A stretch of 64,000 nt of DNA from an uncultured Syntrophobacterales bacterium (GCA_965602785.1 CBFDAH010000001.1:633-64632); one strand, 5' to 3'; shown: positions 4,014-62,218, counted from the stretch's first letter. Numbers and translations: made by a program. The notes: generated from the sequence alone by a model not told the origin.

Positions 4014-4772
4014 TCAGGGCCAGGGCAGCGCGAGGAGGTCTTCCAGACTGGAGTAATGAGTAAGGTCGTGATGGATGGGGGTGACGCTGACGTAGCCGGC
4101 CTGGAGGGCGCCGAAATCCGTGTTCAGGTCGGTTTCCTGGCGCTCGTTGATTTCCGCCAGCCAGAAGTAAATGCGTTCCCGGGGGTCCACCCGGCGCTCG
4201 AAGTGTTCCACCAGGGCGCCCACATCCTGCCGGGTGAATTTTATCCCCCGAACCTGCTCCTGGGGGAGCGCCGGCAGGTTGACGTTGAGGCAGATGGCGG
4301 GGTTCCAGCCGGACCAAGTCAGGAGGCGGTCAAGGACTCCCCGGGCAAGGAGAGCGGCCCTTCGGAAGTCGGCGTTCTTATAGGTGTCCAGAGACAGGGC
4401 CATGGCCCGCACCCCCAGGATGGAAGCCTCGGTGGCAGCGGAAACCGTACCGGAATACAGGACGTTGATACCCACGTTGGCGCCGAGGTTGATGCCGGAG
4501 ACCACCAGGTCCGGGGGGGCTGGGAGAAGCTCGGCCAGGGCGATTTTAACGCAGTCGGCGGGAGTGCCGCTTACCGCCCAGCCTTGTACGCCACCGTCCA
4601 GCGCCATCTGGCGCACCCGGAGGGGGTGGCTCAGGCTGATGGCGTGGCCCACGGCACTCTGCTCGCTTTCCGGGGCCACTACCGCCACTTCCCCCAAGCC
4701 ACAAAGCTCGTGGTAGAGGGCCGTAAGACCGGGGGCGTGGATGCCGTCGTCATTGGTCACAAGGATGTTCAT
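4014..4772 (-). CDS. surE: 5'/3'-nucleotidase SurE
   Basis: N-terminus MNILVTNDDGIHAPGL and GINLGANVG / YSGTVSAA motifs of the SurE family. Confidence 0.9.
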   Translation of the reverse strand: MNILVTNDDGIHAPGLTALYHELCGLGEVAVVAPESEQSAVGHAISLSHPLRVRQMALDGGVQGWAVSGTPADCVKIALAELLPAPPDLVVSGINLGANVGINVLYSGTVSAATEASILGVRAMALSLDTYKNADFRRAALLARGVLDRLLTWSGWNPAICLNVNLPALPQEQVRGIKFTRQDVGALVEHFERRVDPRERIYFWLAEINERQETDLNTDFGALQAGYVSVTPIHHDLTHYSSLEDLLALPWP

Positions 4773-4900
4773 GGTTTTCCTTCAAAGTGAAGCGCAGAGG
4801 TGGCCAGCGTCTGCAACCGTGGCCCTCCCCCTCGCATCTTCGCAGAATTTTTTTTCCGATTATTCGCTTTGCTCCGCAAAGAGAATAATGCTTTTTCAGT

Positions 4901-5106
4901 GGGGGGAAGGCCAGGGAGCATAGGGCGGGTTTGAAACCCGCCCCTACAAGCCCCCACCGAACACCCCCCTCCCAACCCGCTTAGGGGGTGGGTTGGGGCT
5001 GGACTCTTGGGCTCCGGCCCCAACCAACATTTCCAAACCCTTAAGGGATTGGGGGTTGGGTTACAGGGGAGGGGGTAAGGGGCCACGACCCTTAGCCCCC
5101 TCCCCC
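4901..5106. repeat. composite G/C-tract inverted-repeat element (copy A)
   Basis: Left GGGGGGAAGG..CCCCCACC arm interrupted by a GGGCGGGTTTGAAACCCGCCCCTAC hairpin. Then CCCCTCCCAACCCGCTTAGGGGGTGGGTTGGGG and CCAAACCCTTAAGGGATTGGGGGTTGGG palindromes. Right hairpin GGGGAGGGGGTAAGGGGCCACGACCCTTAGCCCCCTCCCC. Confidence 0.8.
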
Positions 5107-5140
5107 GGTCAATTTGGTAGAGGTAAAAATCATAATCGGC

Positions 5141-19213: not shown

Positions 19214-20197
19214 CTATGAATGAATTTCAACAATGTCCCCCTCCTGGAGGAGGTATTCCCGCTGCACCCTTTGGCCCTCGAAGGTCTCCTTGCCCCAGAC
19301 CCGGGCGAACTTGAATTTTTTCCCTAAATCATGATGAATACGGTCGGCCAGCTCCGTGATGGTGGTGCGCACCGGCACCACGAAGGGGGACTTGAAGTTG
19401 GCGGCCTTGCCGGGAACGCGGGTATAAACCCGGATTAGGTCCAGAAATAAAAAGAGGGCGGCCCGGAGTTCGGGGAGGCCCTGGCCGGTTATGGTGGAGA
19501 CGGTCCAGACGGGAAAGCGCTCGCCGAGGACCTCAAGATACAGCTCCAGTTCCTCGGGGTCGGGGATGAGGTCGGTCATATTGAGGACGACGAGGGCCCG
19601 TCGGGGGGTGAGGTTGGGGGGTGGAGAGCCGCCGTCTTGGCCCTGAAGGGCCAGGTGGAAGCCGGCCAGAGTGGCTTCCAGGGCGGCCAGCCGGGCGTCA
19701 GGGTCTTGAGGGGGGGCCAGGATGATGGCGAAGGCATCGGCCCGGCGCAGGAGATCCGGGTACCAGGGCTCCAGATACTCGTCACCCAGGGGGGGGCAGT
19801 CCACCAGCTGCACCTGGACGTTTTCGAAGCGCATCATGCCGGCCAGAGGGATGCGGGTGGTGTAGGGGTAGTCGGCGATAAGGGGCTGGGCCTTGGTCAG
19901 GGCCGCCACGAGGGAGGACTTGCCGGTATTGGGGGGGCCGATGAGGGCCACCTGACCCACCCCTTCACGTTCCACCAGGTACACGGGAGCCCGGCGTCCG
20001 GGGCCCTTACGGGAGGACCCCATATCCTTGAGCTGGGCGATGCGCCGGCGGAGGTCGGCCTTGAGTTTGTCGGTGCCCTTGTGTTTGGGCATGATGGCCA
20101 ACATCTCTTCCAGATACTTGAGCTTTTCACTCACAGACCTGGCCCCCCGGTAGCGCTTCTCCACTTCGAAGTACTGGGGGGGGAGGTTGGCCGGCAT
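19214..20197 (-). CDS. DRG/Obg-like GTP-binding protein with C-terminal TGS domain
   Basis: G1 GPPNTGKSS, then the Mg/G2 region YPYTT. C-terminal TGS-like VWGKETFEGQRVQREYLLQEGDIVEI. Confidence 0.75.
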   Translation of the reverse strand: MPANLPPQYFEVEKRYRGARSVSEKLKYLEEMLAIMPKHKGTDKLKADLRRRIAQLKDMGSSRKGPGRRAPVYLVEREGVGQVALIGPPNTGKSSLVAALTKAQPLIADYPYTTRIPLAGMMRFENVQVQLVDCPPLGDEYLEPWYPDLLRRADAFAIILAPPQDPDARLAALEATLAGFHLALQGQDGGSPPPNLTPRRALVVLNMTDLIPDPEELELYLEVLGERFPVWTVSTITGQGLPELRAALFLFLDLIRVYTRVPGKAANFKSPFVVPVRTTITELADRIHHDLGKKFKFARVWGKETFEGQRVQREYLLQEGDIVEIHS

Positions 20198-22701: not shown

Positions 22702-22726
22702 GTGACCTCCTGGTTATGGGATATGT

Positions 22727-22908
22727 GGGGGAGGGGGCTAAGGAGCGCAGCCCCTTACCCCCTCCCCCACACCCCCTCCCCCAATCCCTTATGGGGAATT
22801 ATCCCGGGAAAGTGAAGGCCAAAGGCCTCGCCTTTTCCTGGCCTAGATGCGGGTTGGGAGGGGGGTGGGGGGGGAGGGCAGGGACCACTGGTCCCTGGCC
22901 CTCCCCCC
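22727..22908. repeat. composite G/C-tract inverted-repeat element (copy B)
   Basis: GGGGGAGGGGGCTAAGGAGCGCAGCCCCTTACCCCCTCCCCC ... CCCCCAATCCCTTATGGGG ... GCGGGTTGGGAGGGG ... GGGGGGAGGGCAGGGACCACTGGTCCCTGGCCCTCCCCCC. Fills the whole gap between two convergently oriented... same-strand genes 22306..22701 and 22925..23530. Confidence 0.85.
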
Positions 22909-22924
22909 ACAAAAACTATAACTA

Positions 22925-24315: not shown

Positions 24316-24340
24316 AAGTATCTCCAAGCATGGCAACGAC

Positions 24341-24370
24341 AAAGGGCAGGCCTCCTACGGCCTGCCCTTT
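24341..24370. terminator. bidirectional hairpin between convergent genes
   Basis: AAAGGGCAGGCC-TCCTAC-GGCCTGCCCTTT: perfect 12-bp stem flanked by A/T residues, between the convergent 3' ends at 24315 and 24467. Confidence 0.5.
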
Positions 24371-24466
24371 GTCATTAAATGGAGCCTGTCACGAAATTTT
24401 TTTACGGGGCGAACCCGGGGACCAAAGGCTCTCCTCTTCCACAAGACTAGGTGCAGCATTCTCACG

Positions 24467-25312: not shown

Positions 25313-25327
25313 AGGTTTTGGTTTCTT

Positions 25328-25370
25328 GGGGGAGGGGGCGAAGGGTCGCAGACCCTTCCCCCCTCCCCCC
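25328..25370. repeat. single G/C-tract hairpin unit between pabB and pabC
   Basis: GGGGGAGGGGGCGAAGGGTCGCAGACCCTTCCCCCCTCCCCCC occupies most of the 66-nt pabB-pabC gap. Confidence 0.85.
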
Positions 25371-25378
25371 ACAAAATG

Positions 25379-26773: not shown

Positions 26774-26783
26774 GATGATGTTT

Positions 26784-26970
26784 GGGGGGAGGGCCAGGAA
26801 CCTGAGGTCCCTACCCTCCCCCCAAGCCCCCCTCCCAACCCGCATAGGGGGCTGGAGAAGGGGGGGCCTTGCAGCCCCGCCTTCTCCAGCTTCTTATTAC
26901 CCCCCTATGGGATTGGGGGTGGGGGTTTGGGGGAGGGGGCAGGGGTCTAAGACCCCTGGCCCCCTCCCTC
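26784..26970. repeat. composite G/C-tract inverted-repeat element (copy C) between pabA and pabB
   Basis: GGGGGGAGGGCCAGGAACCTGAGGTCCCTACCCTCCCCCC ... CCCCTCCCAACCCGCATAGGGGG ... CTGGAGAAGGGGGGGCCTTGCAGCCCCGCCTTCTCCAG ... GGGATTGGGGGTGGGGG ... GGGGGAGGGGGCAGGGGTCTAAGACCCCTGGCCCCCTCCC. Confidence 0.85.
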
Positions 26971-26977
26971 AACCAAC

Positions 26978-31126: not shown

Positions 31127-31157
31127 TTGTCCGTCCTCAGGTATTGTGCTGGAGATT

Positions 31158-31316
31158 GGGGGAGGGGGGTTCCCCCACGGGCTGGAAGCCCGTGCTACCG
31201 GGGCCGTGGGCCCTTACCCCCTCCCTCAAACTCCCTCTCCCAACCCCTTACCTTAATGGGGGTTGGGAGGGGGTTTGGGGGAGGGCGGGGGAACCGTGTT
31301 CACCCGGCCCTCCCCC
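31158..31316. repeat. composite G/C-tract inverted-repeat element (copy D) between sdhA and sdhB
   Basis: GGGGGAGGGGGG..[GGGCTGGAAGCCCGTGCTACC]..CCCTTACCCCCTCCC, CTCCCAACCCCTTACCTTAATGGGGGTTGGGAG, GGGGGAGGGCGGGGGAACCGTGTTCACCCGGCCCTCCCCC. Ends 4 nt from the sdhA stop. Confidence 0.85.
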
Positions 31317-31319
31317 AAG

Positions 31320-33143
31320 CTATCTCAACGAATCCCCCTGAATGGGCATGCTGCCGTAGCCGCGGTCACCCGGGGGCAGGTCAGTGATATTCACGTTTTC
31401 GTATTCCAGCCGGGGGAGGTCAGCCCCTTCGGGCCAATAGGCCAGGGTACGGTTGAGCCAGTTCTCATCGTCCCGACGGGGAAAGTCCTCCCGGTAGTGG
31501 CTGCCCCGACTCTCGGTGCGCTGCAGGGCCCCGTAGGAGATGCACAGGGCCAGGCGCATCATGCCGGGGAGGCGCAGGGCGGCGAACAACTCGGGGTTGG
31601 ACCCCAGGCCACTGCTGCGCAGTTTAATCTCAGAAGAGCGCCGGTAAAGGTCCTGGAGTGTGGCCACGGCCTCCTCAAGGTCCTCGCCGGTGCGAAAGAT
31701 GCCCACCTTATTGAGGAGGGTGTTTTCCATGGCTTTCCTGAGCTGGAAGACATCTTCACTGCCGGAGACGCGGCTGCGCAGGTTTTCAATTCTCTGTTCC
31801 TGAGCTTTGACCGCGTCAACCACCAGGGAAAAGGGAAACCTCAAGGACTGTTCCTGGGTGAAGGCCGCCACTTTTTCCCCCACTATCATGCCGGCCACGA
31901 TAGTCTCCGCCAGGGAGTTCCCGCCCAGGCGGTTGAAGCCGTGCATGTCCCAGCAGGCGGACTCTCCGGCGGCGAAGAGGCTCTTGAGCCCGCGAACGGC
32001 ACCATCTATGTTAGTACGCACGCCCCCCATGGAGTAATGCTGGGTGGGCCGCACGGGTATCAGCTCAGTGATGCAGTCGATGCCCAGGAAGTTTTCACAG
32101 ATGCTGTGCACTTCCCGGAGGTTGGTGCAGATATGAGCCTCACCGAGATGGCGAATGTCGAGCCAGAGGTGGGCGCCGTAGGGGCTGTCCACCCCGAAGC
32201 CCTGGCGCATGTGGTGTATCATCCAGCGGCTCACCACGTCCCGGCTGGCCACCTCTTTCTTGACGGGCTCGTAATCGGGCATAAAACGGTGGAGGTTCTT
32301 GTCCAGGAGATAGCCGCCGTCACCCCGGCAGCCCTCGGTGACCAGGATGTCACCCGGGACAATGCCGGTAGGGTGGAACTGCACGGCCTCCATGTTGCCC
32401 AGGGGGACGACCCCGGTGTCCAGGGCGATGGCCATGCCAGTCCCTTCGTTAATAACTGCGTTGGTGGAGGCGCCGTACATGCGGCCGTAGCCGCCGGTAG
32501 AAATGACCGTGGCCTTGGCTAAATAGGGACGGACCTGGCCGGTGCGGAGGCACATGGCCACCGCGCCATAGCAATTCTCACCGTCGTGGATGAGGCTGAT
32601 GGCCTCAGTGCGGTCGTGCACCGTGACCCCGAGCTTGACCACCACGGAGTCCATGGCGTACTGGAGGACGTGACCGGTACCGTCCGCCGCGAAGCAGGTG
32701 CGCCACTTGGCGGTACCGCCGAACTGACGCTGGGCGATGAGGCCGTCTTTTTCCTGGAGTTCCTCCACTTCCACACCATCGGGGAGGGTTCTCTTGCCGG
32801 GTACGACCCGAGACCAGGGCACACCCCAGGCGGCCATTTGACGCACGGCCACGGGGGCCATCTCCACGAAGAGACGGGCCACGTCCTGGTCGCAACCCCA
32901 GTCGGAGCCCTTCACCGTGTCTTCGAAGTGAATGTCAGAGTTGTCGCCATAGCCCATGGCCACGTTGCCGAGGGAAGCCTGCATGCCGCCCTGGGCGGCG
33001 GTGCTGTGGGAGCGGCGGGGCGGCACCAGGCTCAGGATGGTGACCTGGTGGCCGCTCATGGCGGCTTCGACGGCCACCCGTTCGCCGGCCAGACCGGCGC
33101 CGATGACCAGCACATCACAGATATGGGCGTCTGTCCACCTCAT
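31320..33143 (-). CDS. sdhA: succinate dehydrogenase / fumarate reductase flavoprotein subunit
   Basis: DVLVIGAGLAGERVA FAD motif, RSHSTAAQGG (covalent-FAD histidine region), RGSHYREDFP active-site region. Confidence 0.9.
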   Translation of the reverse strand: MRWTDAHICDVLVIGAGLAGERVAVEAAMSGHQVTILSLVPPRRSHSTAAQGGMQASLGNVAMGYGDNSDIHFEDTVKGSDWGCDQDVARLFVEMAPVAVRQMAAWGVPWSRVVPGKRTLPDGVEVEELQEKDGLIAQRQFGGTAKWRTCFAADGTGHVLQYAMDSVVVKLGVTVHDRTEAISLIHDGENCYGAVAMCLRTGQVRPYLAKATVISTGGYGRMYGASTNAVINEGTGMAIALDTGVVPLGNMEAVQFHPTGIVPGDILVTEGCRGDGGYLLDKNLHRFMPDYEPVKKEVASRDVVSRWMIHHMRQGFGVDSPYGAHLWLDIRHLGEAHICTNLREVHSICENFLGIDCITELIPVRPTQHYSMGGVRTNIDGAVRGLKSLFAAGESACWDMHGFNRLGGNSLAETIVAGMIVGEKVAAFTQEQSLRFPFSLVVDAVKAQEQRIENLRSRVSGSEDVFQLRKAMENTLLNKVGIFRTGEDLEEAVATLQDLYRRSSEIKLRSSGLGSNPELFAALRLPGMMRLALCISYGALQRTESRGSHYREDFPRRDDENWLNRTLAYWPEGADLPRLEYENVNITDLPPGDRGYGSMPIQGDSLR

Positions 33144-41600: not shown

Positions 41601-42063
41601 AAATACCTCCATCCTTGCTGTTGGCTGATTTTCCCTACTCCGAGGGCCTTGGGACACCTGGTATGCAAGTCACGGGCCTAATATAACTATCTGATATTTC
41701 ATATAAAAAAATTTGCCACCCCGCTTGTTCCCGCAATTGTAGGGGAATTGCCGGACTTTGCCCCTAGAGGCAGAGATCAACTCTAGGGGCAAACCGGGGA
41801 GGGAGGCATCCGAGGCGGGGGGGAGGGGAACGACCCGGTGCGGCCCGGTGCCCCCCTTTTCGGGCGGCAGGGTACGCCCACAGGCTGACACGGAGCCTCA
41901 TCACTTTGAAATACTTATATATTAGCTTCTTCCATAACCCCGTCGACAGAATCCCAGCCTCTGAGGTTGGCACGTGCCGGTGAGGGGGCAGAAAAAGTTG
42001 GTTCGGTGACAACCTGGCACATTTGTTCCGGGGGTTGCCGCGGTTTTTGAAAGAGAGGGTGGC

Positions 42064-42270: not shown

Positions 42271-42335
42271 GGCTTGGACCTGCTGACCGGTAGCAAAAAA
42301 GAAGACCGGGGGTTTCTCCAGACCACGAGCCCACT

Positions 42336-42815
42336 ATGACGCGGCGATACAAAACCGGACGCAGAAAGTTGGATTTCTACTTCGAGGAAGTGCAGTCCGT
42401 GTATCTGGCCGGTAAGAGCCTGGAGGAAATCCAGGAGTTGTTTCCGGTTACCCTCCCGACTCTGAAGCGCTGGCACAAGGAAGGCCGTTGGGAAGAGAAG
42501 AAACGTCAGGCCCTGGTGTCGCCCCGCTGGCTGGGGGAGGCCCTCCGGGGGGTGCTCCGGGAAAAGACCGGAAAAATCCTCGCCACAGGGGATATGAAGC
42601 CTCAGGAATTAGATGAGATCACCAAGATTGTTACCTTGATCGACCGCCTAGGGAACGGCAGTTGGAACATCAGAGCTGCGGCCCTGGAGGTCATGGACCG
42701 ATTCAGCGAGTTCATCCGGGGTTCGGTGAAGGAACCGGAAGATATCAAACGATTTTCCCTCTGGATGCATGAGTTTTTCCGCATCCTGGAGGAGGACGAC
42801 GAAGCCAAAGGGTAA
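42336..42815 (+). CDS. putative terminase small subunit (Mu gp27 / DUF1804-like HTH protein)
   Basis: Position immediately upstream of the large terminase. N-terminal HTH-like LAGKSLEEIQELFPVTLPTLKRWHKEGRWEEKK. Confidence 0.5.
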   Translation: MTRRYKTGRRKLDFYFEEVQSVYLAGKSLEEIQELFPVTLPTLKRWHKEGRWEEKKRQALVSPRWLGEALRGVLREKTGKILATGDMKPQELDEITKIVTLIDRLGNGSWNIRAAALEVMDRFSEFIRGSVKEPEDIKRFSLWMHEFFRILEEDDEAKG

Positions 42816-42827
42816 AGGAGCCGGGAG

Positions 42828-44354
42828 ATGAATCTCAACAAAAAGCTCAGCAAAACCGTCTTTCGGCAGAGGGCAGACCGGATCCTCATGCGGCTCTCCA
42901 TGGACGTCATGCCCTTCTGGGATGACACCCCGGAGAAGCGGGAGCGACGCCTGAAGCGGGCCGAAGCCGACCCTCTGTTTTTCTGCCGGACATATCTACC
43001 CCATTACTTCTCCCAGTCGCCGGCGCCCTTTCATTATGAATTGGTGCGGTTCATGGAGGACCGAGGAGAAGTGGTGACCCCGACGGCGGTGGCGGCTCCC
43101 CGGGAGTTTGCCAAGAGCACGGTATGCTCCTTCGGTTATGTCCTGCATCAGATCTGCTTCGGTAAACGGCATTTCATCATCATCGGCAGCGACACCGAGG
43201 ACCTGGCCAGCGACCTCACCGGTTACCTCTATCTAGAACTCCTTTATAACGAGAGGCTCCACCAGGATTTCGGGGAGTTGGTGAAGTCCAATAAGGCAGT
43301 GAATGACTTTATAACCGCCAACAACGTCCGGCTAAAGGCAAGGGGCCGGGGTCAGCGCCTCAGAGGCCTAAAGCACCGGCAGTGGCGCCCGGACCTGGTC
43401 ATCCTGGACGACCTGGAAAACGACGTCAACGTGCGCAACCCGGACTTGGTAGAGCAGATTTTGGACTGGGTGCAGTCGGCGGTTTATCCGGCCCTGGAGG
43501 CCACCGGCACCCTCATGGTCATCGGTACCATTTTGCGGCAGCGGAGCGCCCTGCATCTCATGCTAACGAGTCCCGAGGAGCCTTACTGCAACTTTCGGCG
43601 GCGCATTTATCGGGCCTTGCTAGAGGACGGCAGCTCCCTGTGGGAGGCGCGGCATCCAACCGACCGGCTCAGTATGCAAAGGCAGCTCATGGGGACAGTG
43701 GCCTTCAACCGGGAAAAGATGAACGAGCCCATGCCGGTGAGCGGCATGTTCCAGGAGAACTGGGTTCATTACTACCACCCGGACATCTTGAAAGACCGGA
43801 ATTTGCTGGTAGTGGGTTTCTTCGACCCGTCCCTGGAGGCCGGTAGCAGCGCCGACTATAAAGCGGTGGTGACCGTGGGTTTCTCCCGGGAGGAGATGGT
43901 CTTCTATGTGCTGGACGCCTTTATTAAGAAGACTACCCTGGAGCAAACTCTCAGGGCGGTATTCAACCGGCACCGGGAAAACGCTTTCCACCTTCTGGGG
44001 GTGGAGGACAACCTCTTTCAGCGGCTGTTGCTCAAAGAATTCGATCAGGTGGGGCGAGAGCTAGGGGTTTTTTTGCCGGTGAAGGGGGTAACCAACCGGG
44101 TGGCCAAGGAGACCCGGGTGGCCATTCTCTCCCCCTTAATGGAGCGAGGCAAAATCCGCTTTATCCGGGGGCACTCGGACCAGGAGAAGCTCATCGAGCA
44201 GATGCTGTATTTTCCCTCCCGCACCCTGCATGACGACGGGCCGGACGCCCTGGCGGGGGCGGTGCAGTTGGCCCACCAGATGTCGCCAGGGGAGACGGCG
44301 AATTACGAGCCGGTGACGAAACGGGCCTTTGGAGGAGGCCGGGGGGCGTATTGA
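42828..44354 (+). CDS. phage terminase large subunit
   Basis: 508 aa. ATPase motifs AAPREFAKST (Walker A-like) and DLVILDDLEND (Walker B). C-terminal nuclease-like region with DDGPDAL. Confidence 0.8.
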   Translation: MNLNKKLSKTVFRQRADRILMRLSMDVMPFWDDTPEKRERRLKRAEADPLFFCRTYLPHYFSQSPAPFHYELVRFMEDRGEVVTPTAVAAPREFAKSTVCSFGYVLHQICFGKRHFIIIGSDTEDLASDLTGYLYLELLYNERLHQDFGELVKSNKAVNDFITANNVRLKARGRGQRLRGLKHRQWRPDLVILDDLENDVNVRNPDLVEQILDWVQSAVYPALEATGTLMVIGTILRQRSALHLMLTSPEEPYCNFRRRIYRALLEDGSSLWEARHPTDRLSMQRQLMGTVAFNREKMNEPMPVSGMFQENWVHYYHPDILKDRNLLVVGFFDPSLEAGSSADYKAVVTVGFSREEMVFYVLDAFIKKTTLEQTLRAVFNRHRENAFHLLGVEDNLFQRLLLKEFDQVGRELGVFLPVKGVTNRVAKETRVAILSPLMERGKIRFIRGHSDQEKLIEQMLYFPSRTLHDDGPDALAGAVQLAHQMSPGETANYEPVTKRAFGGGRGAY

Positions 44355-44564
44355 AGAAGGTGGGAGGGACCTTGGGAAGGCGTGGCGCCTGAGCCCCTGG
44401 CCCACCCATAACTCATGAAAATTTTTTACAAATATTCTGGAGTGGCGGAACAAACTTCCAACTTTGAACCCTGAACCTTGAACGTAACAAGACTAAGCAA
44501 TCTTGGTCATCAGGCCAAACCAGCCAAATCGGTTTCACCAGCCCGTTGTACCAGAGAGGACGGC

Positions 44565-45823
44565 ATGGGTTTAAAAGATTACTTCGGCAGATGGTTCAAG
44601 TCACAACCGAAGCCCGACACCAGGGAACTGGCAGCCGTGAGCATTCATGACCGATGGAGCGCCTATCCCAGCGTTGGGCTGACCCCTAGGGGCCTGGCCA
44701 GCATTTTCCAGGAGGCGGACCTGGGTGCAGTGCGCCGCCAGATGGAACTTTTTGAGGAGATGGAGGAGAAGGACGCGCATCTGGCGGCCATCCTGCAGAC
44801 CCGCAAGCTGGCGGTCTTAAGTCTGGATTACGAGGTGCTGCCCTACGCCAAAACACCGGAGGACGAGCACATCGCCGAGACGATGGGGGAGATGGTCTGG
44901 GGGATTCCCAACCTGGAGACCGCTTTCCTTGATTTGCTGGATGCCATCGGCAAGGGCTTCGCCCTGGCGGAGATCATCTGGGGAGTAGAACAAGGCCAGG
45001 CTCGGGTGGTGGAACTCAATTGGGTGCCTCAGAAGAAAGTGACCTTTGTGGAGGACCTGGCGCCCCGCCTGATGACGGCGGACGGTCCCTGGCAGGGGGG
45101 GTGGAACTGCCCCCCTGGAAGGTCATCTACCACCGCTACAGGGCGCGGAGCGGGCATGACACCCGGGCGGGAGTCCTTCGAGTGGCGGGCTACATGTATC
45201 TGCTCAAGAATTACGCCCTGAAGGATTGGGCTGCGTTCAACGAGATCTTCGGGATGCCGCTGCGCTTAGGTAAGTACGACCCGGCCTCCACTCCGGCGGA
45301 CCGTGAGGCCCTGATCCAGGCTATCCGCAACCTGGGGTCGGACGCGGCGGGAATCATCAGTAAGAACACGGAGATTGAGTTTGTGGAGACCGCCAACCGG
45401 ATCTCGGGAAGCAACAACCCTTACCAGGTGCTGGCGGACTTTTGCAACCGGGAGATGTCCAAGGCCATTTTGGGACAGACCCTGACCACGGACACCTCCG
45501 GAGGAACGGGAACCTTTGCCGCCGCCAGGGTGCACGCTCAGGTGCGGCGGGATCTGGTGGAAGCGGACGCCCAGGCCCTGGGGCACACCTTGCGGGAGCA
45601 GTTGCTACGGCCGCTGGTGGGCTTCAACTTCGGCTGGGACAAGCCGGTGCCCTGGTTTCGCTTCCGGTACGAGGAAGAAGAGGACCTCAAGACCCTGTCG
45701 GAGGTTTACCGGAACCTGGCACACATGGGGTTACCCATGAGTATGGAACACGTGGCGGAGCGCTTCGGCATCCCTCTGGCCCAAAAGGGCCAGGAGACCT
45801 TAGGGCGGCGCGACGGAAGCTGA
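44565..45823 (+). pseudogene. Mu gp29-type portal protein (DUF935), split by a frameshift at a G7 run
   Basis: The N-terminal half is in the frame of ORF 44478..45221 (start ATG 44565). The C-terminal half is in the frame of ORF 45020..45823 (YALKDWAAFNEIFGMPLRLGKYD..., NPYQVLADFCNREMSKAILGQTLTT). The sense switches at GGGGGGG 45095-45101. Confidence 0.8.
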
Positions 45824-45876
45824 ATAAGCTTCCCATTCCAACCATCGGAGGCGAAAAAACTGGAAGGACGAGGAAG

Positions 45877-46902
45877 ATGACAATGAACAAGGAAATACGG
45901 CTGACGTTGGAGATGGCGGAGTTGCCAAAATGGCTGAGGCTCCTGCCCCTGGGACAAGTGGAGCTGGTGGATGGCCGGCCGCATTTCGACGTGGACCCCG
46001 AATCCCTGGCGGAAATGGTGAAAGCCTTTGCGGCCCGGGGCACGGACCTGGTCATCGATTATGAGCATCAGTCTTTAAAAGGGGTTCAGGCGCCGGCGGC
46101 GGGTTGGATCAAAGACCTGGAAACCCGGGAAGACGGGCTCTGGGCCCTGGTGGAATGGACGGACCAGGCCCAGGAGTATCTGAGCCGTCGGGAGTACCGC
46201 TACTTCTCACCGGTGCTGCGGCTCGACCCGGCCACCCGGCGACCCCAGGAGCTCATGAACATGGCTTTGACTAATGTACCGGCCATTCGGGGGATCGACC
46301 CTCTGGTGGCCAAGTGGGGCGGGGAGGCCCAGGAGCCCCACAACCTCTCAGATGCTCCAGGTTTGGAGGCATGCAAGGAGCGGGATGGGTTGATGACTGA
46401 CCTGAAAATCACGTTGGGGCTACCCCCCGAAGCCGGGGAAAGCGCTCTATGGCAAGAGGCGGCGGAAATCTTCCGGGATCTGGCCCAGCACCTGGGCCTG
46501 CCGGAGGAGGCCACAGCCTCCCAGCTCAAGGGGAGTCTCCTGGCTCTCAAGGACGGGAGTGACCAGGTCATGGCCTTGCAAGAGGAGCTCACGGCCCTGA
46601 AGGACCGGCTGGCCGAAGAAACCGCCATGCGGACGGTGGAGGAGGCCATGCTGGCCGGAAAGGTCAGCCCGGCCCAGAAAAGTTGGGCTTTGACCTATTG
46701 CCGCCAGGACCCGGAGAGCTTCAAGACTTACGTGGAGAAGTCTCCCAAAATCGTGCCCCTAGGCGAACGGCTGAACTTGGGAGAAGAAGGTAACCGGGAA
46801 GATCGGGGACTGACCCCGGAGGAACTGGCCCTGTGCCGGTCCATGAATCTAACCCCGGAAGCGTATTTTCAAGCCAAGGCCAAGATGGCCCAGGCCAAGT
46901 AA
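45877..46902 (+). CDS. Mu I-type prohead protease with C-terminal scaffold region
   Basis: Start moved to ATG 45877. WLRLLPLGQVELVDGRPHFDVD...DLVIDYEHQSL matches the Mu-like prophage I protein. Coiled-coil C-terminal half. Confidence 0.8.
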   Translation: MTMNKEIRLTLEMAELPKWLRLLPLGQVELVDGRPHFDVDPESLAEMVKAFAARGTDLVIDYEHQSLKGVQAPAAGWIKDLETREDGLWALVEWTDQAQEYLSRREYRYFSPVLRLDPATRRPQELMNMALTNVPAIRGIDPLVAKWGGEAQEPHNLSDAPGLEACKERDGLMTDLKITLGLPPEAGESALWQEAAEIFRDLAQHLGLPEEATASQLKGSLLALKDGSDQVMALQEELTALKDRLAEETAMRTVEEAMLAGKVSPAQKSWALTYCRQDPESFKTYVEKSPKIVPLGERLNLGEEGNREDRGLTPEELALCRSMNLTPEAYFQAKAKMAQAK

Positions 46903-46917
46903 CGGAGGTGAGACGAA

Positions 46918-47325
46918 ATGGCAGCTTTAACCAAGGATAGGGCCACGCCATACCGGGACGGCATCGAAATCGAGTTTCCAGTGGCAGCCAACAGCAAGAT
47001 TTACTCCGGCAGCCTGGTGTGCGCCAACACCAGCGGGTACGCGGTGCCAGCGGAGGACACCGCAGGTTTTGCCTTCCTGGGCGTAGCCCTGGAGCAGGTG
47101 GACAACACGGGGGGCGCCGACGGAGTCAAGAAGGTACGCCTCAGACGGACCGGGGTGTTCGAGTTCGACGCCGCCAGCATCACCCAGGACATGGTGGGGA
47201 GCGACATGTTTGCCGTGGACGACCACACCATGGATGACACAATCGGCACCACCAACACCATACGCGTGGGAGTGCTGGTGAAGTACGTGGCCGATACCAA
47301 AGGCTGGATCGATATCAGCAGATAA
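46918..47325 (+). CDS. putative head decoration/cement protein (DUF2190-like)
   Basis: 135 aa between the protease and the major capsid gene. Beta-rich with the GFAFLGVALEQVDNTGG pattern. Assignment is mainly positional. Confidence 0.4.
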   Translation: MAALTKDRATPYRDGIEIEFPVAANSKIYSGSLVCANTSGYAVPAEDTAGFAFLGVALEQVDNTGGADGVKKVRLRRTGVFEFDAASITQDMVGSDMFAVDDHTMDDTIGTTNTIRVGVLVKYVADTKGWIDISR

Positions 47326-47342
47326 CCAGGGAGGTATGAACA

Positions 47343-48239
47343 ATGATCATTAACGCAGACGCCTTGGCCAGAGTCTACACGGCTTTCAGTGCGGTGTTCA
47401 ATAACGCTTTTCAGAGCACCGAGACCTGGTACGAACAGATCGCCATGACGGTGCCGGCCAAGACTCGCATCATGGATTACAAGTTTCTGCTGGACTTCCC
47501 CACGGTGCGGGAATGGATCGGGGACCGGCAAATAAGCTCGCTGGAGCCCAAGGCCTACCAGGTGGAGACCAAGGATTGGGAAGCCACCATTGAAATCGAG
47601 CGCAACGACGTGGAAGACGAGCAGTTGGGGCTATACAACCCCATCATTGCGGCCATGGCCGAGGAAGCCAAACGACACCCGGAAAAGCTCATTGCCAATC
47701 TCATGAAAAACGGTGCCACTTCTTTGTGTTACGACGGGCAACCCTTCTTCAGTGCGGACCACCAGGTGGGGAGCGGGACGGCGTCCAACTTTGATTTCAG
47801 CGACAGCGAAGGCTGGTTCCTCATGGACCAATCCCGGGCCATCAAGCCCTTCCTCTTTCAGATACGCCGGGGAGTGCAACTGGTGCGCATGGACCGGCCG
47901 GACGACGAACACGTCTTTCTGCACAAGAAGTTCCGCTACGGGGTGGACTACCGGGGCGCCGCGGCCTACGGCCTGTGGCAGTTAGCCTTTTGCTCTAAAC
48001 AGGAATTGAATGCCACTAACTATGCCTCGGCCCGGGCGGCCATGATGTCCCAAACCAACGCCGAAGGCATGCCTCTAGGCATCAAGCCCAACCTGCTGGT
48101 GGTGCCGCCGGCCCTGGAGTCCAAGGCCCGGGAAATCCTGCACGCCCAGTTCATTATCGGCTCAGACTCGGTGGGCGGTTCCAAGTCCAACATCTGGCAG
48201 GGCTCGTCGGAGCTCCTGGTAATGCCAGAGCTGGTCTAA
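47343..48239 (+). CDS. major capsid protein, Mu gpT-like
   Basis: 298 aa. FLLDFPTVREWIGDRQISSLEPKAYQVETKDWEATIEIERNDVEDEQLGLYNP matches the gpT family pattern. Confidence 0.8.
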   Translation: MIINADALARVYTAFSAVFNNAFQSTETWYEQIAMTVPAKTRIMDYKFLLDFPTVREWIGDRQISSLEPKAYQVETKDWEATIEIERNDVEDEQLGLYNPIIAAMAEEAKRHPEKLIANLMKNGATSLCYDGQPFFSADHQVGSGTASNFDFSDSEGWFLMDQSRAIKPFLFQIRRGVQLVRMDRPDDEHVFLHKKFRYGVDYRGAAAYGLWQLAFCSKQELNATNYASARAAMMSQTNAEGMPLGIKPNLLVVPPALESKAREILHAQFIIGSDSVGGSKSNIWQGSSELLVMPELV

Positions 48240-48296
48240 ACCTGAATATGATGAGGGGCGGTCACCAGAGCGCCCCTTACTGCACAAGGAGTTGTC

Positions 48297-48638
48297 ATGA
48301 GCTGGTTCGGCGGAATTGTCATCCAAACCGAAAACAGCGTCCCAGGGAACTTTGAGGAGCTCCAGGTGAACGACAGTTCCTCCTGGTTCCAACGGGGCAA
48401 AATCAAACCCACGAGCGGCCCATATGCCGGCTTGTCGGCCCAGGCAGGATTGATTTCCCTGGAAGGTGGGGACATTCGCTTTCGCCTGGACGGTCTGAGT
48501 CCACCCACAAGCACCAGCGGACATTATATGAGCAGTGGCGATACTTTCCTTCTCATCGGCACCCAGGCTTTATTGCAGTTTCGGGCCATCCGGGTGGGAG
48601 TGGAGAACGGCATTTTAACCGCGACTTACTTCTTTTAG
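48297..48638 (+). CDS. phage hypothetical protein
   Basis: 113-aa ORF in the operon orientation. No motif. Confidence 0.45.
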   Translation: MSWFGGIVIQTENSVPGNFEELQVNDSSSWFQRGKIKPTSGPYAGLSAQAGLISLEGGDIRFRLDGLSPPTSTSGHYMSSGDTFLLIGTQALLQFRAIRVGVENGILTATYFF

Positions 48639-48667
48639 AGAAGCCTAGCAGAACAGGGAGGCAAGCG

Positions 48668-48835
48668 ATGTTCACGGGCAAGAAGACCTACATTATGGCA
48701 GCCATTATGGGCCTGGGGGCCTTCGCCCGGGCTATGGGGTGGCTGCAGCAAGACCAGTTCGAACTTCTCATGGGGCTGGCCGGCTCGCTGGGCCTGGCGG
48801 CGCTCCGGTCCGGGGTCTCCAAGACCACCGAATGA
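48668..48835 (+). CDS. small membrane protein (55 aa, holin-like)
   Basis: Not in the ORF track. GGGAGG RBS 7 nt upstream. MFTGKKTYIMAAIMGLGAFARAMGWLQQDQFELLMGLAGSLGLAALRSGVSKTTE has two hydrophobic segments. Its stop lies 1 nt before the next ATG. Confidence 0.5.
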   Translation: MFTGKKTYIMAAIMGLGAFARAMGWLQQDQFELLMGLAGSLGLAALRSGVSKTTE

Positions 48836-48836
48836 C

Positions 48837-49100
48837 ATGAACTACGGCGACCTGGCAGAGCACGTGGGGGTGGTGGTGGCCCTCCTGGGCATCTTCGCAG
48901 GCCTGAGCGGGATGCTGTTCTGGCGGATGCTGGTGCGCATGGAAAAAAAGCTGGACCAGCTCCACGACGCCACCCAACGCTGTCGCTCCAGCCTGGGCGA
49001 ACGGTTCTTAGGGCGGGAGGAGTTCCGCAAGGAAAAGGACGATATCTGGGAGGCCGTCAATGCCCACTCTCATAGCACCGAGGGGCGGGTGGTGCGGTAA
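48837..49100 (+). CDS. single-pass membrane coiled-coil protein (paralog of 61106..61366)
   Basis: N-terminal TM, then RMEKKLDQLHDATQRC...WEAVNAHSHSTEGRVVR. Aligns with 61106..61366 (RMEGKMDTLRQNC...WEALHHHEHDFQGRVRR). Confidence 0.55.
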   Translation: MNYGDLAEHVGVVVALLGIFAGLSGMLFWRMLVRMEKKLDQLHDATQRCRSSLGERFLGREEFRKEKDDIWEAVNAHSHSTEGRVVR

Positions 49101-49133
49101 CCCTCTTGAAGAAAAACACGTAGGAGAAAGACC

Positions 49134-49601
49134 ATGAAGAAGCTGGTTATTGCTCTCATGCTCATTAGCCTGGTGGGTTGCGCTGGTATGCTAACCAAGC
49201 CGCCGGTGGGATGCGAAGAAGCTTTCGTGTGGAAAAGTGGCTTCATGCCCGAGGGACGGGAGTTGTTGGAACTGGGGTTTGCCTCCCTGATCACTGCGGA
49301 GCCCAAATTAAAGCCCCACGTGAAGACCGGGGCACTGAAAGCCTGGCGTTTGGTACATGACGGGACCCTCGGGGGCGCGGTGACGGAATTGTTGGGTTTG
49401 GTCGAGAAGAATCCTCAATATACCCCCCTGGCCCTCTTTGCGCTCCAGCGCCTGGACATGGATCGGAGCCTGAACACGTGCGACCAGGAGGTGCTCTTGT
49501 CCATGTTCCGTAACATCGCCATCTATGCCGGAGCCACGGAGCAGGACTTCACCGCCAGCTTGGCGAGCCTGGTCAGCCCTCCGGCGGTAAAGGACAAATA
49601 G
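49134..49601 (+). CDS. phage lipoprotein
   Basis: Lipobox MKKLVIALMLISLVGCAG. Confidence 0.6.
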   Translation: MKKLVIALMLISLVGCAGMLTKPPVGCEEAFVWKSGFMPEGRELLELGFASLITAEPKLKPHVKTGALKAWRLVHDGTLGGAVTELLGLVEKNPQYTPLALFALQRLDMDRSLNTCDQEVLLSMFRNIAIYAGATEQDFTASLASLVSPPAVKDK

Positions 49602-49602
49602 C

Positions 49603-50025
49603 ATGGCTTACTGTACGGAAAACGATCTCATCACGATGATTTCCCAGGAAGAGCTGGCCGCCCTCACGGCGGAATCCGGGGAGTCACCCGACAGTCTGGT
49701 GGTGGCAGAGGCCATTACCCAGGCCGACGCCGAAATCGACGCCTATCTGGGGACACGTTATACGCTGCCCCTGGCGCCGGTGCCGTCCCAGGTAAAGGGA
49801 CTGTCGGTGGACATGGCCATCTACCACCTCTACTCCCGGCGCAGCGTGGCGCCGTCAGTCAGGCGGCAGAGGTATGAGGCGGCGGTGAGCTTCCTCAAAC
49901 AGGTGGCGGCAGGCCACGTCGTGTTGGAAGGGGCCAGCGGCCTTCTCCCGGAAAGCGAGCGGGTGGAGAGCGAGTTTACCGGCCCCGCCCGGGTTTTTTC
50001 CCGCAACACCCTGGGGGAATGGTAG
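49603..50025 (+). CDS. head-tail connector protein, Mu gp36-like (DUF1320)
   Basis: MAYCTENDLITMISQEELAALT...ADAEIDAYLGTRYTLPL matches the DUF1320 pattern. Confidence 0.7.
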   Translation: MAYCTENDLITMISQEELAALTAESGESPDSLVVAEAITQADAEIDAYLGTRYTLPLAPVPSQVKGLSVDMAIYHLYSRRSVAPSVRRQRYEAAVSFLKQVAAGHVVLEGASGLLPESERVESEFTGPARVFSRNTLGEW

Positions 50026-50031
50026 GAAGCT

Positions 50032-50472
50032 ATGAGCAGCCTTTCCTGGATCACGGTGGAAGACGCGGTGGTGGCCGCCCTGGAGAGCCAACTGAGACCG
50101 GCGGTCAAGACCGTCATGAGCTACCAGGGGAACTGGAGGACTGATCTCAGACAGGAGACCTGGCGGCTACCAGCGGCGCTGGTAATGCTGCGGCGCAGCC
50201 GGTCGGACCAGGTGGGGCTGTCTTCGTATGATCTCACCCTGGACTTCGAGGTGTTGGTGGTGGTGCGGCAATTGCGGGGCGAGGCGGCAGGCCGGCGAGA
50301 AACGGGAGGGGCTTACGACCTCCTGGCAGGGGTGCGGGAAGCCCTGTGGCATCAGGACCTAGGGCTGGAGGTGACACCCCTGGCCCTGGTCCGGGAAGAG
50401 CCGCTCCTGAACGACGGGGAATTCACGGTGTATGCCGCCCACTACCGCACAGCCCTGGTCCAGGACCGGTAA
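50032..50472 (+). CDS. Mu gp37-like virion protein (DUF1834)
   Basis: Position after the DUF1320 gene. LPAALVMLRRS...FEVLVVVRQLRGEAAGRRETGGAYDLLAGVREAL pattern. Confidence 0.6.
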   Translation: MSSLSWITVEDAVVAALESQLRPAVKTVMSYQGNWRTDLRQETWRLPAALVMLRRSRSDQVGLSSYDLTLDFEVLVVVRQLRGEAAGRRETGGAYDLLAGVREALWHQDLGLEVTPLALVREEPLLNDGEFTVYAAHYRTALVQDR

Positions 50473-50508
50473 GGTCGGGGTCGCGGCGGGTCTAGAGGAG
50501 ATACAAGG

Positions 50509-51801: not shown

Positions 51802-51802
51802 G

Positions 51803-52195
51803 GTGAGGCAAATGTCGAGGATACTGGGAGAGGAACGCCACCGGTTGGCCATCCAGGACCCGATGAGCGGGTCGGTGATCACCCTGTACTTCAGGCGGCC
51901 CACCTCAGAGGAGCGGGTGGCCTATCAACTCTCCGTGTTTCACCTGGACGGAGGTGAGCGGCGCCTGCGCCTCAGCGAGACCCGGCTCAGGTTTGGCTTG
52001 GAAATCCTAACGGGTTTCGAGAGCGGAAATTTTCTTATCCAGGAAAACGGCCAGACCATGAACCTGGACCCTGACCAGCACCCGGACTGGAAAGAGCGCT
52101 TGGGGGAGCACGCCTCGGACCTGGTGTCCTATCTCGGCCAACAAGTGTTTGAGGGCCTGCGGGTCTTAGGACGGGGAGGGCCCGAATGGGGCTGA
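51803..52195 (+). CDS. putative tail assembly chaperone
   Basis: 130 aa, immediately upstream of the tape-measure region. Positional assignment. Confidence 0.4.
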   Translation: MRQMSRILGEERHRLAIQDPMSGSVITLYFRRPTSEERVAYQLSVFHLDGGERRLRLSETRLRFGLEILTGFESGNFLIQENGQTMNLDPDQHPDWKERLGEHASDLVSYLGQQVFEGLRVLGRGGPEWG

Positions 52196-53284: not shown

Positions 53285-53293
53285 GGAGGGGAC

Positions 53294-53659: not shown

Positions 53660-53682
53660 CAAGGTGTTGAAGAGGGTTTTTC

Positions 53683-53738
53683 GGGGAAGGGGGCCAGAGG
53701 CCACAGACCCCTGCCCCCTCCCCCCTCTCCCAACCCCA
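53683..53738. repeat. single G/C-tract hairpin unit inside the phage cluster
   Basis: GGGGAAGGGGGCCAGAGGCCACAGACCCCTGCCCCCTCCCCCC followed by TCTCCCAACCCC. Confidence 0.8.
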
Positions 53739-53859
53739 TACTTGATATTTGGCTTCGCCAATGGCCAGCAAACCACAGAACTCAAAAAAAAACGGCCTTG
53801 GGGATTACACTCTTTCAACAGCCTGGAAGCCTAAGGACAGCCAAGCGTAAAGGAACAAC

Positions 53860-55542: not shown

Positions 55543-55559
55543 AATCCGGAAAAGGTTTT

Positions 55560-55602
55560 GAGGGGAGGGCCGGGGGAGCGCGGTTCCCTCGGCCCCCTCC
55601 TC
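55560..55602. repeat. single G/C-tract hairpin unit inside the phage cluster
   Basis: GAGGGGAGGGCCGGGGGAGCGCGGTTCCCTCGGCCCCCTCCTC. Confidence 0.75.
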
Positions 55603-55624
55603 AGAAAAAAGGGAGTGAGACGGC

Positions 55625-60857: not shown

Positions 60858-60965
60858 TTGCCTGGCGCCGTCCCACCAAAGCCTTTACCTGGACAACAAC
60901 AACACCGCCAACCAGGTGGTGCGGATCACCGGCTGGGAGGAGTAGAAGGATAGGTTGGCACTGTT

Positions 60966-61009
60966 GGGGGGATGGGTCCAGGGACCACGAGCCCCTGCCC
61001 CTTTCCCCA
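60966..61009. repeat. degenerate G/C-tract hairpin unit
   Basis: GGGGGGATGGGTCCAGGGACCACGAGCCCCTGCCCCTTTCCCC. Confidence 0.65.
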
Positions 61010-61105
61010 CATACAATTCCCCCAACGTTGGCTGGAGGCATCCAACCGGGAGCTGGAGCGCAGTTTTCATCTCATCATCACAAACAACTAAAACGGATTG
61101 CAGCC

Positions 61106-61366: not shown

Positions 61367-61386
61367 AAATTAGCTGAACAGTCCTT

Positions 61387-61428
61387 GGGGAATGGGGTGA
61401 GGGCTCCAAGGCCCCTTGCCCCTCTCCC
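61387..61428. repeat. degenerate G/C-tract hairpin unit
   Basis: GGGGAATGGGGTGAGGGCTCCAAGGCCCCTTGCCCCTCTCCC. Confidence 0.65.
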
Positions 61429-61454
61429 GACCCCCGCTCAGGGAGGTAAGACAG

Positions 61455-61900: not shown

Positions 61901-61983
61901 GCCTCTCGCTCACGAGCCAGGAAATCTCAGACGGTCCCATCCCACCTTTCCCCTTAAATTGAGACTGTTGTGAAAGTATCTTG

Positions 61984-62127
61984 AGGGGCGGGCCGGGGGA
62001 CCACTGGCCCCCCGCCCTTGGGCACGGCAAGCCGTGCCCCTGCGACTCCCCTCCCAACCCCCTTTAGGCTTTGGGAAAATCGAGGCCCAAGGTCTCGCTT
62101 TTTTGAAAATATGTAAGGGGTTGGGAG
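61984..62127. repeat. composite G/C-tract element (copy E, right hairpin missing)
   Basis: GAGGGGCGGGCCGGGGGACCACTGGCCCCCCGCCC, GGGCACGGCAAGCCGTGCCCCTGC, CTCCCAACCCCCTTTAGG ... TAAGGGGTTGGGAG. Confidence 0.75.
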
Positions 62128-62218
62128 AAAGGCGGTTGAGAAAAACAGGGCTACGGGGGGCGCATATCTAGGTGCTTCCTCCCACAGGTCAAGGCTCCCA
62201 AAATCCAGAGATTCGTGC

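Follow-up and report, generated by a model that had tools for sequence, protein, structure and literature searches.

A 64-kb stretch of DNA from an uncultured Syntrophobacterales bacterium (GCA_965602785.1 CBFDAH010000001.1:633-64632), here called the window, carries 14 copies of a nested palindrome, the unit, at ten intergenic loci named E1 to E10; they were found by reading, folding and a hidden Markov model (HMM). These repeats probably make up a non-coding, lineage-specific, “untagged” stem-loop family of Desulfobaccales-type Thermodesulfobacteriota, of the same kind as repetitive extragenic palindromes (REPs) and bacterial interspersed mosaic elements (BIMEs). The family is new and its kind is known: it is REP/BIME-like, with no tag and no link shown to a REP-associated tyrosine transposase (RAYT). 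Its polar composite of three hairpins is unusually regular, and a rule of orientation relative to genes is possible.

An earlier sequence-only reading had placed 14 units at these ten loci, and reading, HMM and folding bear out both the number and the positions. The HMM, built from ten units, recovers the same ten in the window and nothing else (E 4e-10 to 2e-5). Two extra units, at 61384-61431 and 61981-62020, are degenerate and come from reading and folding, and two others are split by a GTAG-type hairpin (4898-4960 and 31155-31228). The abundance claimed for the family also holds in the window: GGGGGAGGGG occurs 10 times where 2.55 +/- 1.43 are expected (0 of 100 dinucleotide shuffles reach 10), and CTCCCAACCCC, with at most one mismatch, occurs 12 times against 4.99 +/- 1.93, a count that no dinucleotide-preserving shuffle equals. 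An inverted-repeat finder lists family hairpins among the longest matches in the window. All ten loci lie between genes, as had been said, both by codon-usage gene calls and by gene calls on public contigs. A degenerate copy suspected at 41832-41873 is G-rich, but by reading and HMM it is not a family member.

The sequence-only reading could not assign the repeats to a described class, and the databases agree. At gathering thresholds, Rfam gives 0 matches in the window and 18 related loci; the best sub-threshold matches reach 32-34 bits against thresholds of 79-99 and are generic GC hairpins and a weak likeness to BjrC80. Literature searches by motif and by lineage returned no description of the family.

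The unit hairpin

The unit is a hairpin of about 45 bp: its outer arms are G5AG5/C5TC5, its inner stem has 8 bp, and a single C is left unpaired. It reads (T)TG GGGGGAGGGGG C, the 8-bp inner stem, a loop of 3-4 nt, the returning inner stem and CCCCCTCCCCC CA(A), and the palindrome has a polarity because the single C 5' of the inner stem is unpaired. Like a REP, it is a short, GC-rich, imperfect palindrome that is multi-copy and extragenic. The units of the window were aligned with those of 12 other genomes among the matches listed. The 53 units fall into four discrete, covarying types that recur across genomes:

Type I: G5AG5 arms; inner stem TAAGGGCC/GGCCCTTA
Type II: G6AG3 arms; inner stem and loop CAGGGACC-TGA-GGTCCCTG
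Type III: arm GAGGGGAGGG; inner stem and loop CCGGGGGAAC-GCG-GTTCCCCCG
Type IV: G5AG5 arms; inner stem CAGGGGTC/GACCCCTG

That the copies align as one family is confirmed by strong compensatory covariation and by recurrence in at least 12 other genomes. Standard pairs fill 93.2% of cells in the alignment compared to 79.8% with shuffled partners, and both sides have changed in 15 of 21 pairs, counts that refer to sequences rather than events and largely reflect a few types. When the 3' partner is slid by one column or more, paired cells fall to 67% or less. The single A of the G-run shifts position in step with its T partner, and G-U pairs are rare in the stems. A single unit folds at -24 to -44 kcal/mol, and the two units interrupted by GTAG-type hairpins reach -49 kcal/mol. 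Neither a GTAG nor a CGTC tag is present in the alignment, where the flanks of the units read TTG/TGT ... CAA/ACA. Integron attC sites were considered for the GTTGGGG/CCCCAAC ends of some units and were ruled out by reading: many units end TGT/ACA, their neighbours are housekeeping operons, and there is no integrase.

Composite elements

The long composites are about 190-200 bp and consist of a type I or IV hairpin, a C-rich L-box (CCCCCNCCCCCAATCCC), a variable central hairpin, a G-rich R-box (GCGGGTTGGGAGGGGGG) and a type II hairpin. The first description had them as inverted repeats throughout. The inverted hairpins stand, but the simple symmetry does not: long composites are polar, because the terminal hairpins differ in type and CCCCCNCCCCCAATCCC differs from the reverse complement of GCGGGTTGGGAGGGGGG.

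Two long composites of the window were aligned with six others, which come from three further genomes (L114, L007, L045, L036, L024 and L006; L-numbers denote the related contigs and loci compared). The alignment of the eight spans 221 columns with a mean column identity of 72%. The order of the parts is the same in seven composites from four genomes, and L006 is without the second terminal hairpin. In sequence, the central hairpin is 23-63% identical among copies, and its pairing is kept by compensatory changes. The RNAalifold consensus comprises three consecutive hairpins, with the boxes paired around the centre and 17 covarying pairs. Folded as DNA, the E2 composite (22718-22917) reaches -70.4 kcal/mol (z = -7.8). 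L-box and R-box are 73-95 bp apart in all long composites, and 21 and 35 bp apart in two short forms. The short form, with symmetric boxes and no centre, is seen at E5 and also in L064. Single units and half elements match composites in frequency.

In having two hairpin types in alternating orientation and conserved linkers the composites are built like BIMEs, which is an architectural analogy only, and as inverted doublets of hairpins they also resemble REP doublets forming hairpins (REPINs). The sequence-only reading had called the family MITE/BIME-like (MITE, miniature inverted-repeat transposable element). The BIME-like architecture is upheld; membership of the RAYT/REP system is not shown, and six composites are without a target-site duplication (TSD).

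Two copies had been said to carry a GTAG-type sub-hairpin. Such sub-hairpins are present, but there are three, at 4923-4947, 31176-31198 and 62020-62043, each the reverse complement of GTAG/GCAG plus a GC stem-loop, as in classical REPs. These are all the GTAG/GCAG REP-like hairpins in the intergenic DNA of the window, and all three are nested in composites (- strand), which suggests that composites are preferred landing sites for REPs. Nested REPs sit in the loop, between outer and inner stem, and between hairpin and box.

The ten loci

The canonical orientation is on the + strand for E2 and on the - strand for E4 and E1. The elements of the window and their parts are as follows:

E1, 4898..5110, - strand: composite between DUF4340/ABC-auxiliary genes and surE
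E1 hairpins: type I at 5063-5109; type II at 4898-4960, broken by the GTAG REP-like hairpin 4923-4947 (-)
E2, 22718..22917, + strand: long composite, between the FMN-reductase stop (22925) and the thioesterase ribosome-binding site/start (22701)
E2 type I hairpin, 22724..22771, + strand: TGT GGGGGAGGGGG C TAAGGAGC GCA GCCCCTTA CCCCCTCCCCC ACA
E2 L-box, 22772..22796, + strand: CCCCCTCCCCCAATCCC then TTATGGGG; columns nearly invariant
E2 central hairpin, 22803..22841, + strand: variable sequence, structure kept through compensation
E2 R-box, 22849..22865, + strand: GCGGGTTGGGAGGGGGG, pairs with the L-box
E2 type II hairpin, 22866..22911, - strand: GGGGGGAGGG C CAGGGACC .. GGTCCCTG CCCTCCCCCC on the - strand
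E3, 25322..25376, + strand: single unit between pabB-like (chorismate-binding) and pabC-like (aminotransferase IV) genes
E4, 26777..26976, - strand: long composite between pabA-like (GATase) and pabB-like genes
E4 hairpins: type II at 26781-26826; type IV at 26926-26971
E5, 31151..31322, + strand: short-form composite between frdA/sdhA-like and frdB/sdhB-like genes
E5 type I hairpin, 31155-31228: nested GTAG REP-like hairpin at 31176-31198 (-)
E5 remainder: symmetric boxes CTCCCAACCCC / GGGGTTGGGAG; type III hairpin at 31275-31318
E6, 53676..53738, + strand: half element, unit plus partial C-rich box CTCTCCCAACCCC; in a phage structural module
E7, 55553..55607, + strand: single type III-like unit within the phage module
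E8, 60961..61013, + strand: degenerate unit
E9, 61384..61440, + strand: degenerate unit followed by box-like CCTCTCCCGACCCCCGCTCAGGG; below the HMM threshold, reading and folding only
E10, 61981..62135, - strand: partial composite; degenerate hairpin 61981-62020, no second terminal hairpin
E10 nested hairpin, 62020-62043 (-): GCAG-tagged, REP-like; boxes CTCCCCTCCCAACCCCC and GGGGTTGGGAG
E10 central hairpin, 62081-62097: scores terminator-like, then CTTTTTTG

E2 aligns end to end with the elements in L114, L007, L036, L045, L024 and L006. The phage structural module occupies about 42300-61400 (+ strand) and is present in every strain contig examined. Its genes include the large terminase (42828-44354), a head maturation protease (45877-46902), the major head protein (47343-48239), a Mu Gp37-like protein (50032-50472) and a 1262-aa Laminin_G_3 protein (55964-59752). 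E6-E9 lie inside this module and are more degenerate than the chromosomal units.

Distribution across genomes

The genes of the window are about 70-76% identical to those of metagenome-assembled genomes (MAGs) labelled Desulfobaccales and “Deltaproteobacteria”. Near-identical contigs exist in the NCBI MAG GCA_964538925.1 and in several JGI, ENA and Logan assemblies. A scan of genome collections with the pattern GGGGGAGGGGN{16,26}CCCCTCCCCC gave at least 118 stretches. By HMM, family members are found in at least 12 other species-representative genomes of Desulfobaccales and allied Thermodesulfobacteriota, at non-orthologous sites, and these non-orthologous copies in different genomes have loops, boxes and discrete hairpin types in common.

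At one related locus (L055:1911-3284), an open reading frame (ORF) resembling family B DNA polymerases (...NISPETVNCACC) breaks off at a type I unit. After this unit comes the tail CCCCATA(A/G)GCGCTAACTTA, likewise seen behind units at L094:1515-1540 and L112:6321-6345; this tail may be one more form of box or belong to the end of some larger element.

Gene context and a proposed effect on the host

Units begin 2-35 nt past the stop codon of the upstream gene. On its other side, the edge of E2 is about 10 nt before the Shine-Dalgarno sequence of the next gene and 22 nt before the start codon. E4 and E3 lie inside a pabA-pabB-pabC-like operon (GATase, chorismate-binding and class IV aminotransferase genes), and E5 lies between the genes for the flavoprotein and Fe-S subunits of a fumarate reductase/succinate dehydrogenase. 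A scan for intrinsic terminators listed none of the units, which are without a T-tract; the central hairpin of E10 (62081-62097) is the one that fits. Because of the missing T-tract and the position within operons, the elements appear to be co-transcribed and not to act as strong terminators.

Of the 38 cases in which a unit adjoins a single stop codon, 31 have the hairpin nearer to that codon and the C-rich box farther away, and 7 are the other way round. Restricted to isolated units, the count is 20 against 5 (binomial p = 0.004). This bias relative to the upstream gene is suggestive only, since the gene calls are crude and the sample is small and partly non-independent. In other genomes, four of the six long composites lie stop-to-stop between convergent genes.

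In E. coli, REPs and BIMEs protect the 3' ends of mRNA and take part in Rho-linked attenuation. By analogy, an effect of this type on the host is the most likely one here, since the elements seem to be transcribed together with the flanking genes and have no U-tract. Stable RNA hairpins at 3' ends or between cistrons would block 3'-5' exonucleases and stabilise the upstream message; they would also set differential stability and attenuate read-through between cistrons. The order of stop codon, hairpin and C-rich tract is compatible with Rho-assisted attenuation. At the DNA level, the family would spread and turn over, a trans-acting factor probably recognising the conserved G5AG5/C5TC5 arms, and recombination or slippage between C-rich arms would remove or reshuffle copies.

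One could also consider the family as a lineage-wide “punctuation” module for gene ends rather than a passive selfish repeat, although we think this rather unlikely. Such a module would place a very stable hairpin and then a C-rich tract right behind stop codons, with one orientation preferred, and a dedicated protein would recognise the G5AG5/C5TC5 arms. The protein could be a mobilising enzyme other than a RAYT, or a DNA/RNA-binding factor, in which case it would serve to form 3' ends without a U-tract, or to attenuate with the help of Rho. On this view, the module would have a bidirectional form, the composites.

Occupancy and age of the copies

Among near-identical strains, presence or absence differs at two of the five composite loci. 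At E1, L002 and L003 (99.7-100% identical to the window) are without 266 bp (window 4832-5097) and have CCCTCCCCC once at the junction, while L001 and L004 retain the element. Part of the missing piece, 69 bp, is unique AT-rich DNA with no second copy in the related loci examined. At E5, one degenerate type III hairpin replaces the composite in L132 and L134 (94.5-98.6% identical to the window), and the indel is bounded by CCCTCCCCCAA-like C-rich arms. Two further comparisons of strain contigs revealed no polymorphism. One contig, Ga0309839_1004358 (L001/L123), is otherwise 99.5-100% identical to the window and is without 628 bp comprising most of surE (window 4189-4816) and without 124 bp inside the MMR_HSR1/TGS GTPase gene (window 19514-19637); these gaps are either population deletions or assembly artefacts.

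Orthologous spacers in other species also differ in content. In L064, the E4 spacer holds a different, shorter composite and the E3 spacer holds no element, and in L110 the E2 spacer contains unrelated repeats. The reverse is seen at window 24335-24376, where two convergent genes are separated by an ordinary hairpin of 18 bp (AACGACAAAGGGCAGGCC/GGCCTGCCCTTTGTCATT) and the orthologous spacer of L064 has a family composite. The E2 spacer draws different repeats in different species; those of L110 (1703-2233) are tandem and heptamer-like (runs of GTGAGCA / CTCAGTC), with a small CCCTCCCCCCTCAAGGGGGAGGGG hairpin. In L127:1-470 (ENA ERZ27251168 k141_4199077), the type I hairpin of E2 (window 22727-22768) occurs alone and is joined to a divergent gene absent from the window, which is either a rearrangement at the hairpin or a chimeric assembly. 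Contigs of several independent assemblies end within E2, E4 and E5, as would fit a multi-copy palindrome, though GC hairpins that sequence poorly could also play a part.

Of 49 units in relatives, 4 overlap the 3' end of an ORF; for example, the GATase gene of L064 reads on through the element where its homologue in the window stops. Copies are 57-69% identical within a genome and 51-72% between genomes. Since likeness within a genome is no higher than between genomes, the copies appear to be old and maintained, and not the product of a recent burst.

Weighing the explanations

Several of these observations count against a REP/BIME-like family of mobile repeats. A clean insertion at E1 was considered and rejected because the extra piece contains the 69 bp of unique DNA; since that DNA is gone as well, deletion between the CCCTCCCCC direct repeats is the simpler reading. 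The indels at E1 and E5, both bounded by direct repeats of C-rich arms, may therefore be deletions only, and no clean insertion was seen among the strains and loci compared. An identity of 51-72% leaves recent transposition undemonstrated. The search yielded no mobilising enzyme, and the one Y1 transposase close to the window has another repeat on its flanks. The effect on the host rests on analogy, and the orientation bias carries the limits given above. In addition, folding the 14 units on both strands gives the mRNA strand no consistent advantage. For this reason, and since G-U pairs are rare, selection of an RNA on the transcribed strand was rejected: these two features fit a palindrome at the DNA level better than an RNA made from one strand.

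The search for a RAYT that had been proposed did find a RAYT gene beside the window, but this RAYT does not appear to be the cognate enzyme, because it is flanked by a different, classical REP. The gene encodes a 168-aa Y1 transposase (PF01797) that scores 87.3 bits with the NCBIfam model REP_Tyr_transpos, whose cut-off is 80. It lies 567-1073 bp to the left of the first position of the window, on a contig whose sequence is identical to that of the window (L001:16400-17020). With its annotated start, the gene probably reads through the 5' REP; the true start codon is likely to be the ATG of MTKPPEEG. Its presence some 0.6-1.1 kb away in the same genome, together with the REPIN-like inverted doublets of GC-rich palindromes and the nesting of all three GTAG/GCAG hairpins in composites, could point to true members of the RAYT/REP system, mobilised by a RAYT as REPINs or REPs. 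This is nonetheless improbable: the flanks of the RAYT are GTAG-GGCGGGCG-TCCT-CGCCCGCC REPs, with a REPIN on the 3' side and no G5AG5 units, and the family units have no GTAG/CGTC tag. A tblastn search with this RAYT showed none near units in the window or the family loci, and 80 metagenome loci that encode its relatives (333 kb, the same organism included) contain 0 units. MITEs, that is, deletion derivatives of DDE-type insertion sequences mobilised in trans through terminal inverted repeats, would explain the size of 150-205 bp, the mutually inverted terminal hairpins with TG..CA-like ends (TGTGGGGG...CCCCCACA) and the non-coding copies at many intergenic sites. We regard them as quite improbable, given that no direct repeat flanks any of the six composites as a TSD would, and the 9-11-bp repeats at the two indels are the C-rich arms of the elements themselves. 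The box spacing of long forms stays within 73-95 bp, and no parent insertion sequence or longer autonomous version with the same ends was seen in the window and the family loci, where the larger gaps examined between boxes contain ordinary genes between separate elements. The low identity without genome-specific bursts and the frequency of single units and half elements also speak against MITEs.

The hairpins could instead be immobile, terminator-like or RNA-stabilising structures that evolved in place at gene ends and are alike through convergence or shared constraint. Their position directly after stop codons, their preferred orientation toward the upstream gene, the old and diverged copies whose structure is kept by compensation, and the stop-to-stop placement of composites between convergent genes are what one would expect of such structures. 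We still doubt this explanation strongly, as loops, boxes and types are common to non-orthologous copies although the genes are only about 70-76% identical, orthologous spacers hold different members or none, and units have entered the phage module and the 3' ends of ORFs; nor do units have a T-tract, and several lie inside operons of co-expressed subunits. The sequence-only reading had noted that the G-tract arms could form G-quadruplexes, and in fact 11 of the 20 canonical motifs of the window lie within the 1.2 kb of elements (1.9% of the window), with one motif per strand in each composite, made of box and outer arm. A function through G-quadruplexes (and i-motifs) rather than hairpins is very unlikely even so. 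Each G-rich arm has a matched C-rich partner, and by their predicted stability (-24 to -49 kcal/mol per unit) the hairpins should prevail over the quadruplexes; hairpins or cruciforms are better supported because complementarity is what stays conserved (93% paired, the single A moving with its T). It is hardly credible that each composite encodes a structured small RNA or acts in cis as a regulatory RNA, despite the covarying three-hairpin consensus and the sub-threshold likeness to the three-hairpin BjrC80 (32 bits against a gathering score of 80). Rfam has no family for it at gathering score in the window and 18 related loci, composites occur in both orientations relative to neighbouring genes, and promoter and terminator scans flag no promoter-like site inside any element; G-U pairs are almost absent, and folding has no strand preference.

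Comparison with known repeats

REPs and BIMEs are defined in PMC2817692, and a conserved tetranucleotide, GTAG or CGTC, marks one end of a REP palindrome (PMC3733652, PMC3479197). The family is like the REPs and BIMEs of E. coli and Enterobacteria in that its members are short, GC-rich, imperfect palindromes, numerous and extragenic, at the 3' ends of genes and inside operons. With BIMEs it also shares the two hairpin types, the alternating orientation and the conserved linker motifs. The mosaic elements of Enterobacteria are further characterised by the REP (PU) consensus and by their binding of integration host factor, gyrase and Pol I. Unlike BIMEs, it has no sequence similarity to them (by reading, its sequences are unrelated to the E. 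coli REP consensus), no GTAG tag and no cognate RAYT found; its units are longer, two-tier hairpins with G5AG5 arms, and complementary boxes in its composite surround a third hairpin, central and variable.

In the REPIN-RAYT systems of Pseudomonas fluorescens and others (PMC3116915, PMC3337134), an inverted palindrome doublet likewise forms a long hairpin, singlets are remnants, and copies are old, persistent and diverged, with no recent burst. REPINs differ in that both halves are the same REP, whereas the terminal hairpins of the family are of different types. Also, the RAYT of the window's genome is flanked by other REPs, and none is linked to the family. A further comparison is with the CGTC-tagged and “untagged” repeats discussed by Di Nocera et al. 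2013 (PMC3733652), who found CGTC-tagged REPs without a dedicated transposase and stated that untagged families “likely occur”. These too are abundant, palindromic and intergenic repeats with no dedicated transposase found; the family differs from CGTC-tagged REPs in having no CGTC/GTAG tag, its own consensus, discrete types and a composite form. The lineage of the family goes unmentioned in the main text of that paper (PMC3733652), which has no occurrence of “Desulfo”, “Syntroph” or “Deltaproteobacteria”. The family represents a well-structured and abundant REP-like example without a RAYT link from an uncultivated anaerobic lineage, and it bears on the question, posed before for repeats with a CGTC tag or with none, of which agent spreads and maintains such families.

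Correia elements of Neisseria have TA duplications and sites for integration host factor (IHF), and the pneumococcal BOX elements are assembled from boxA, boxB and boxC modules. The family is similarly modular, with complementary end modules around a variable middle, a length of 100-200 bp, probable co-transcription with neighbours and a strong predicted secondary structure. The TA duplications, IHF sites, boxA/B/C modules and sequences of these elements are absent from the family, for which no TSD was found at the six composites.

The covarying types, the polar composite and the orientation bias provide concrete handles for experiments. Knowing the family also helps annotation, by avoiding spurious Pro/Gly-rich ORFs and false C-terminal extensions. 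Several independent metagenome assemblies of this population are interrupted within the elements, which makes the family one practical cause of fragmented Desulfobaccales-type MAGs.

Other hairpins that share the core

The remaining pattern matches listed are different things that share the searched core, and their likeness is partly by construction. In Alphaproteobacteria and Chloroflexus they are nested hairpins, in Desulfovibrio and Clostridia terminator-like ones. Alphaproteobacteria (L010, L018, L022, L042, L103, L108 and others) and Chloroflexus/Chloroflexota (L017, L029, L073) have their own nested G5AG4 hairpin repeats. One example from these other lineages reads GGGAGGGGGTTG-GGGGGAGGGG...CCCCTCCCCC-CAACCCCCTCCC-GCAA-GGGGAGGGGG and another CCCTCCCC-TCAA-GGGGGAGGGG...CCCCCTCCCCC-TTGA-GGGGAGGGG. 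These hairpins have no match to the family HMM and none in Rfam. If the punctuation module were real, the G5AG4 hairpins of Alphaproteobacteria and Chloroflexus would hint at a wider, unrecognised class.

A phage origin of the family was considered and rejected: 97 viral contigs match the strict hairpin pattern, and 0 of them contain family members, another conserved hairpin being present instead. Among these IMG/VR contigs (L225-L321), dozens of viral genomes, about 50 kb in size, have the hairpin GGGGGAGGGG(T/A)nCCTTGGCGGGCC..CCCCTCCCCC in common.

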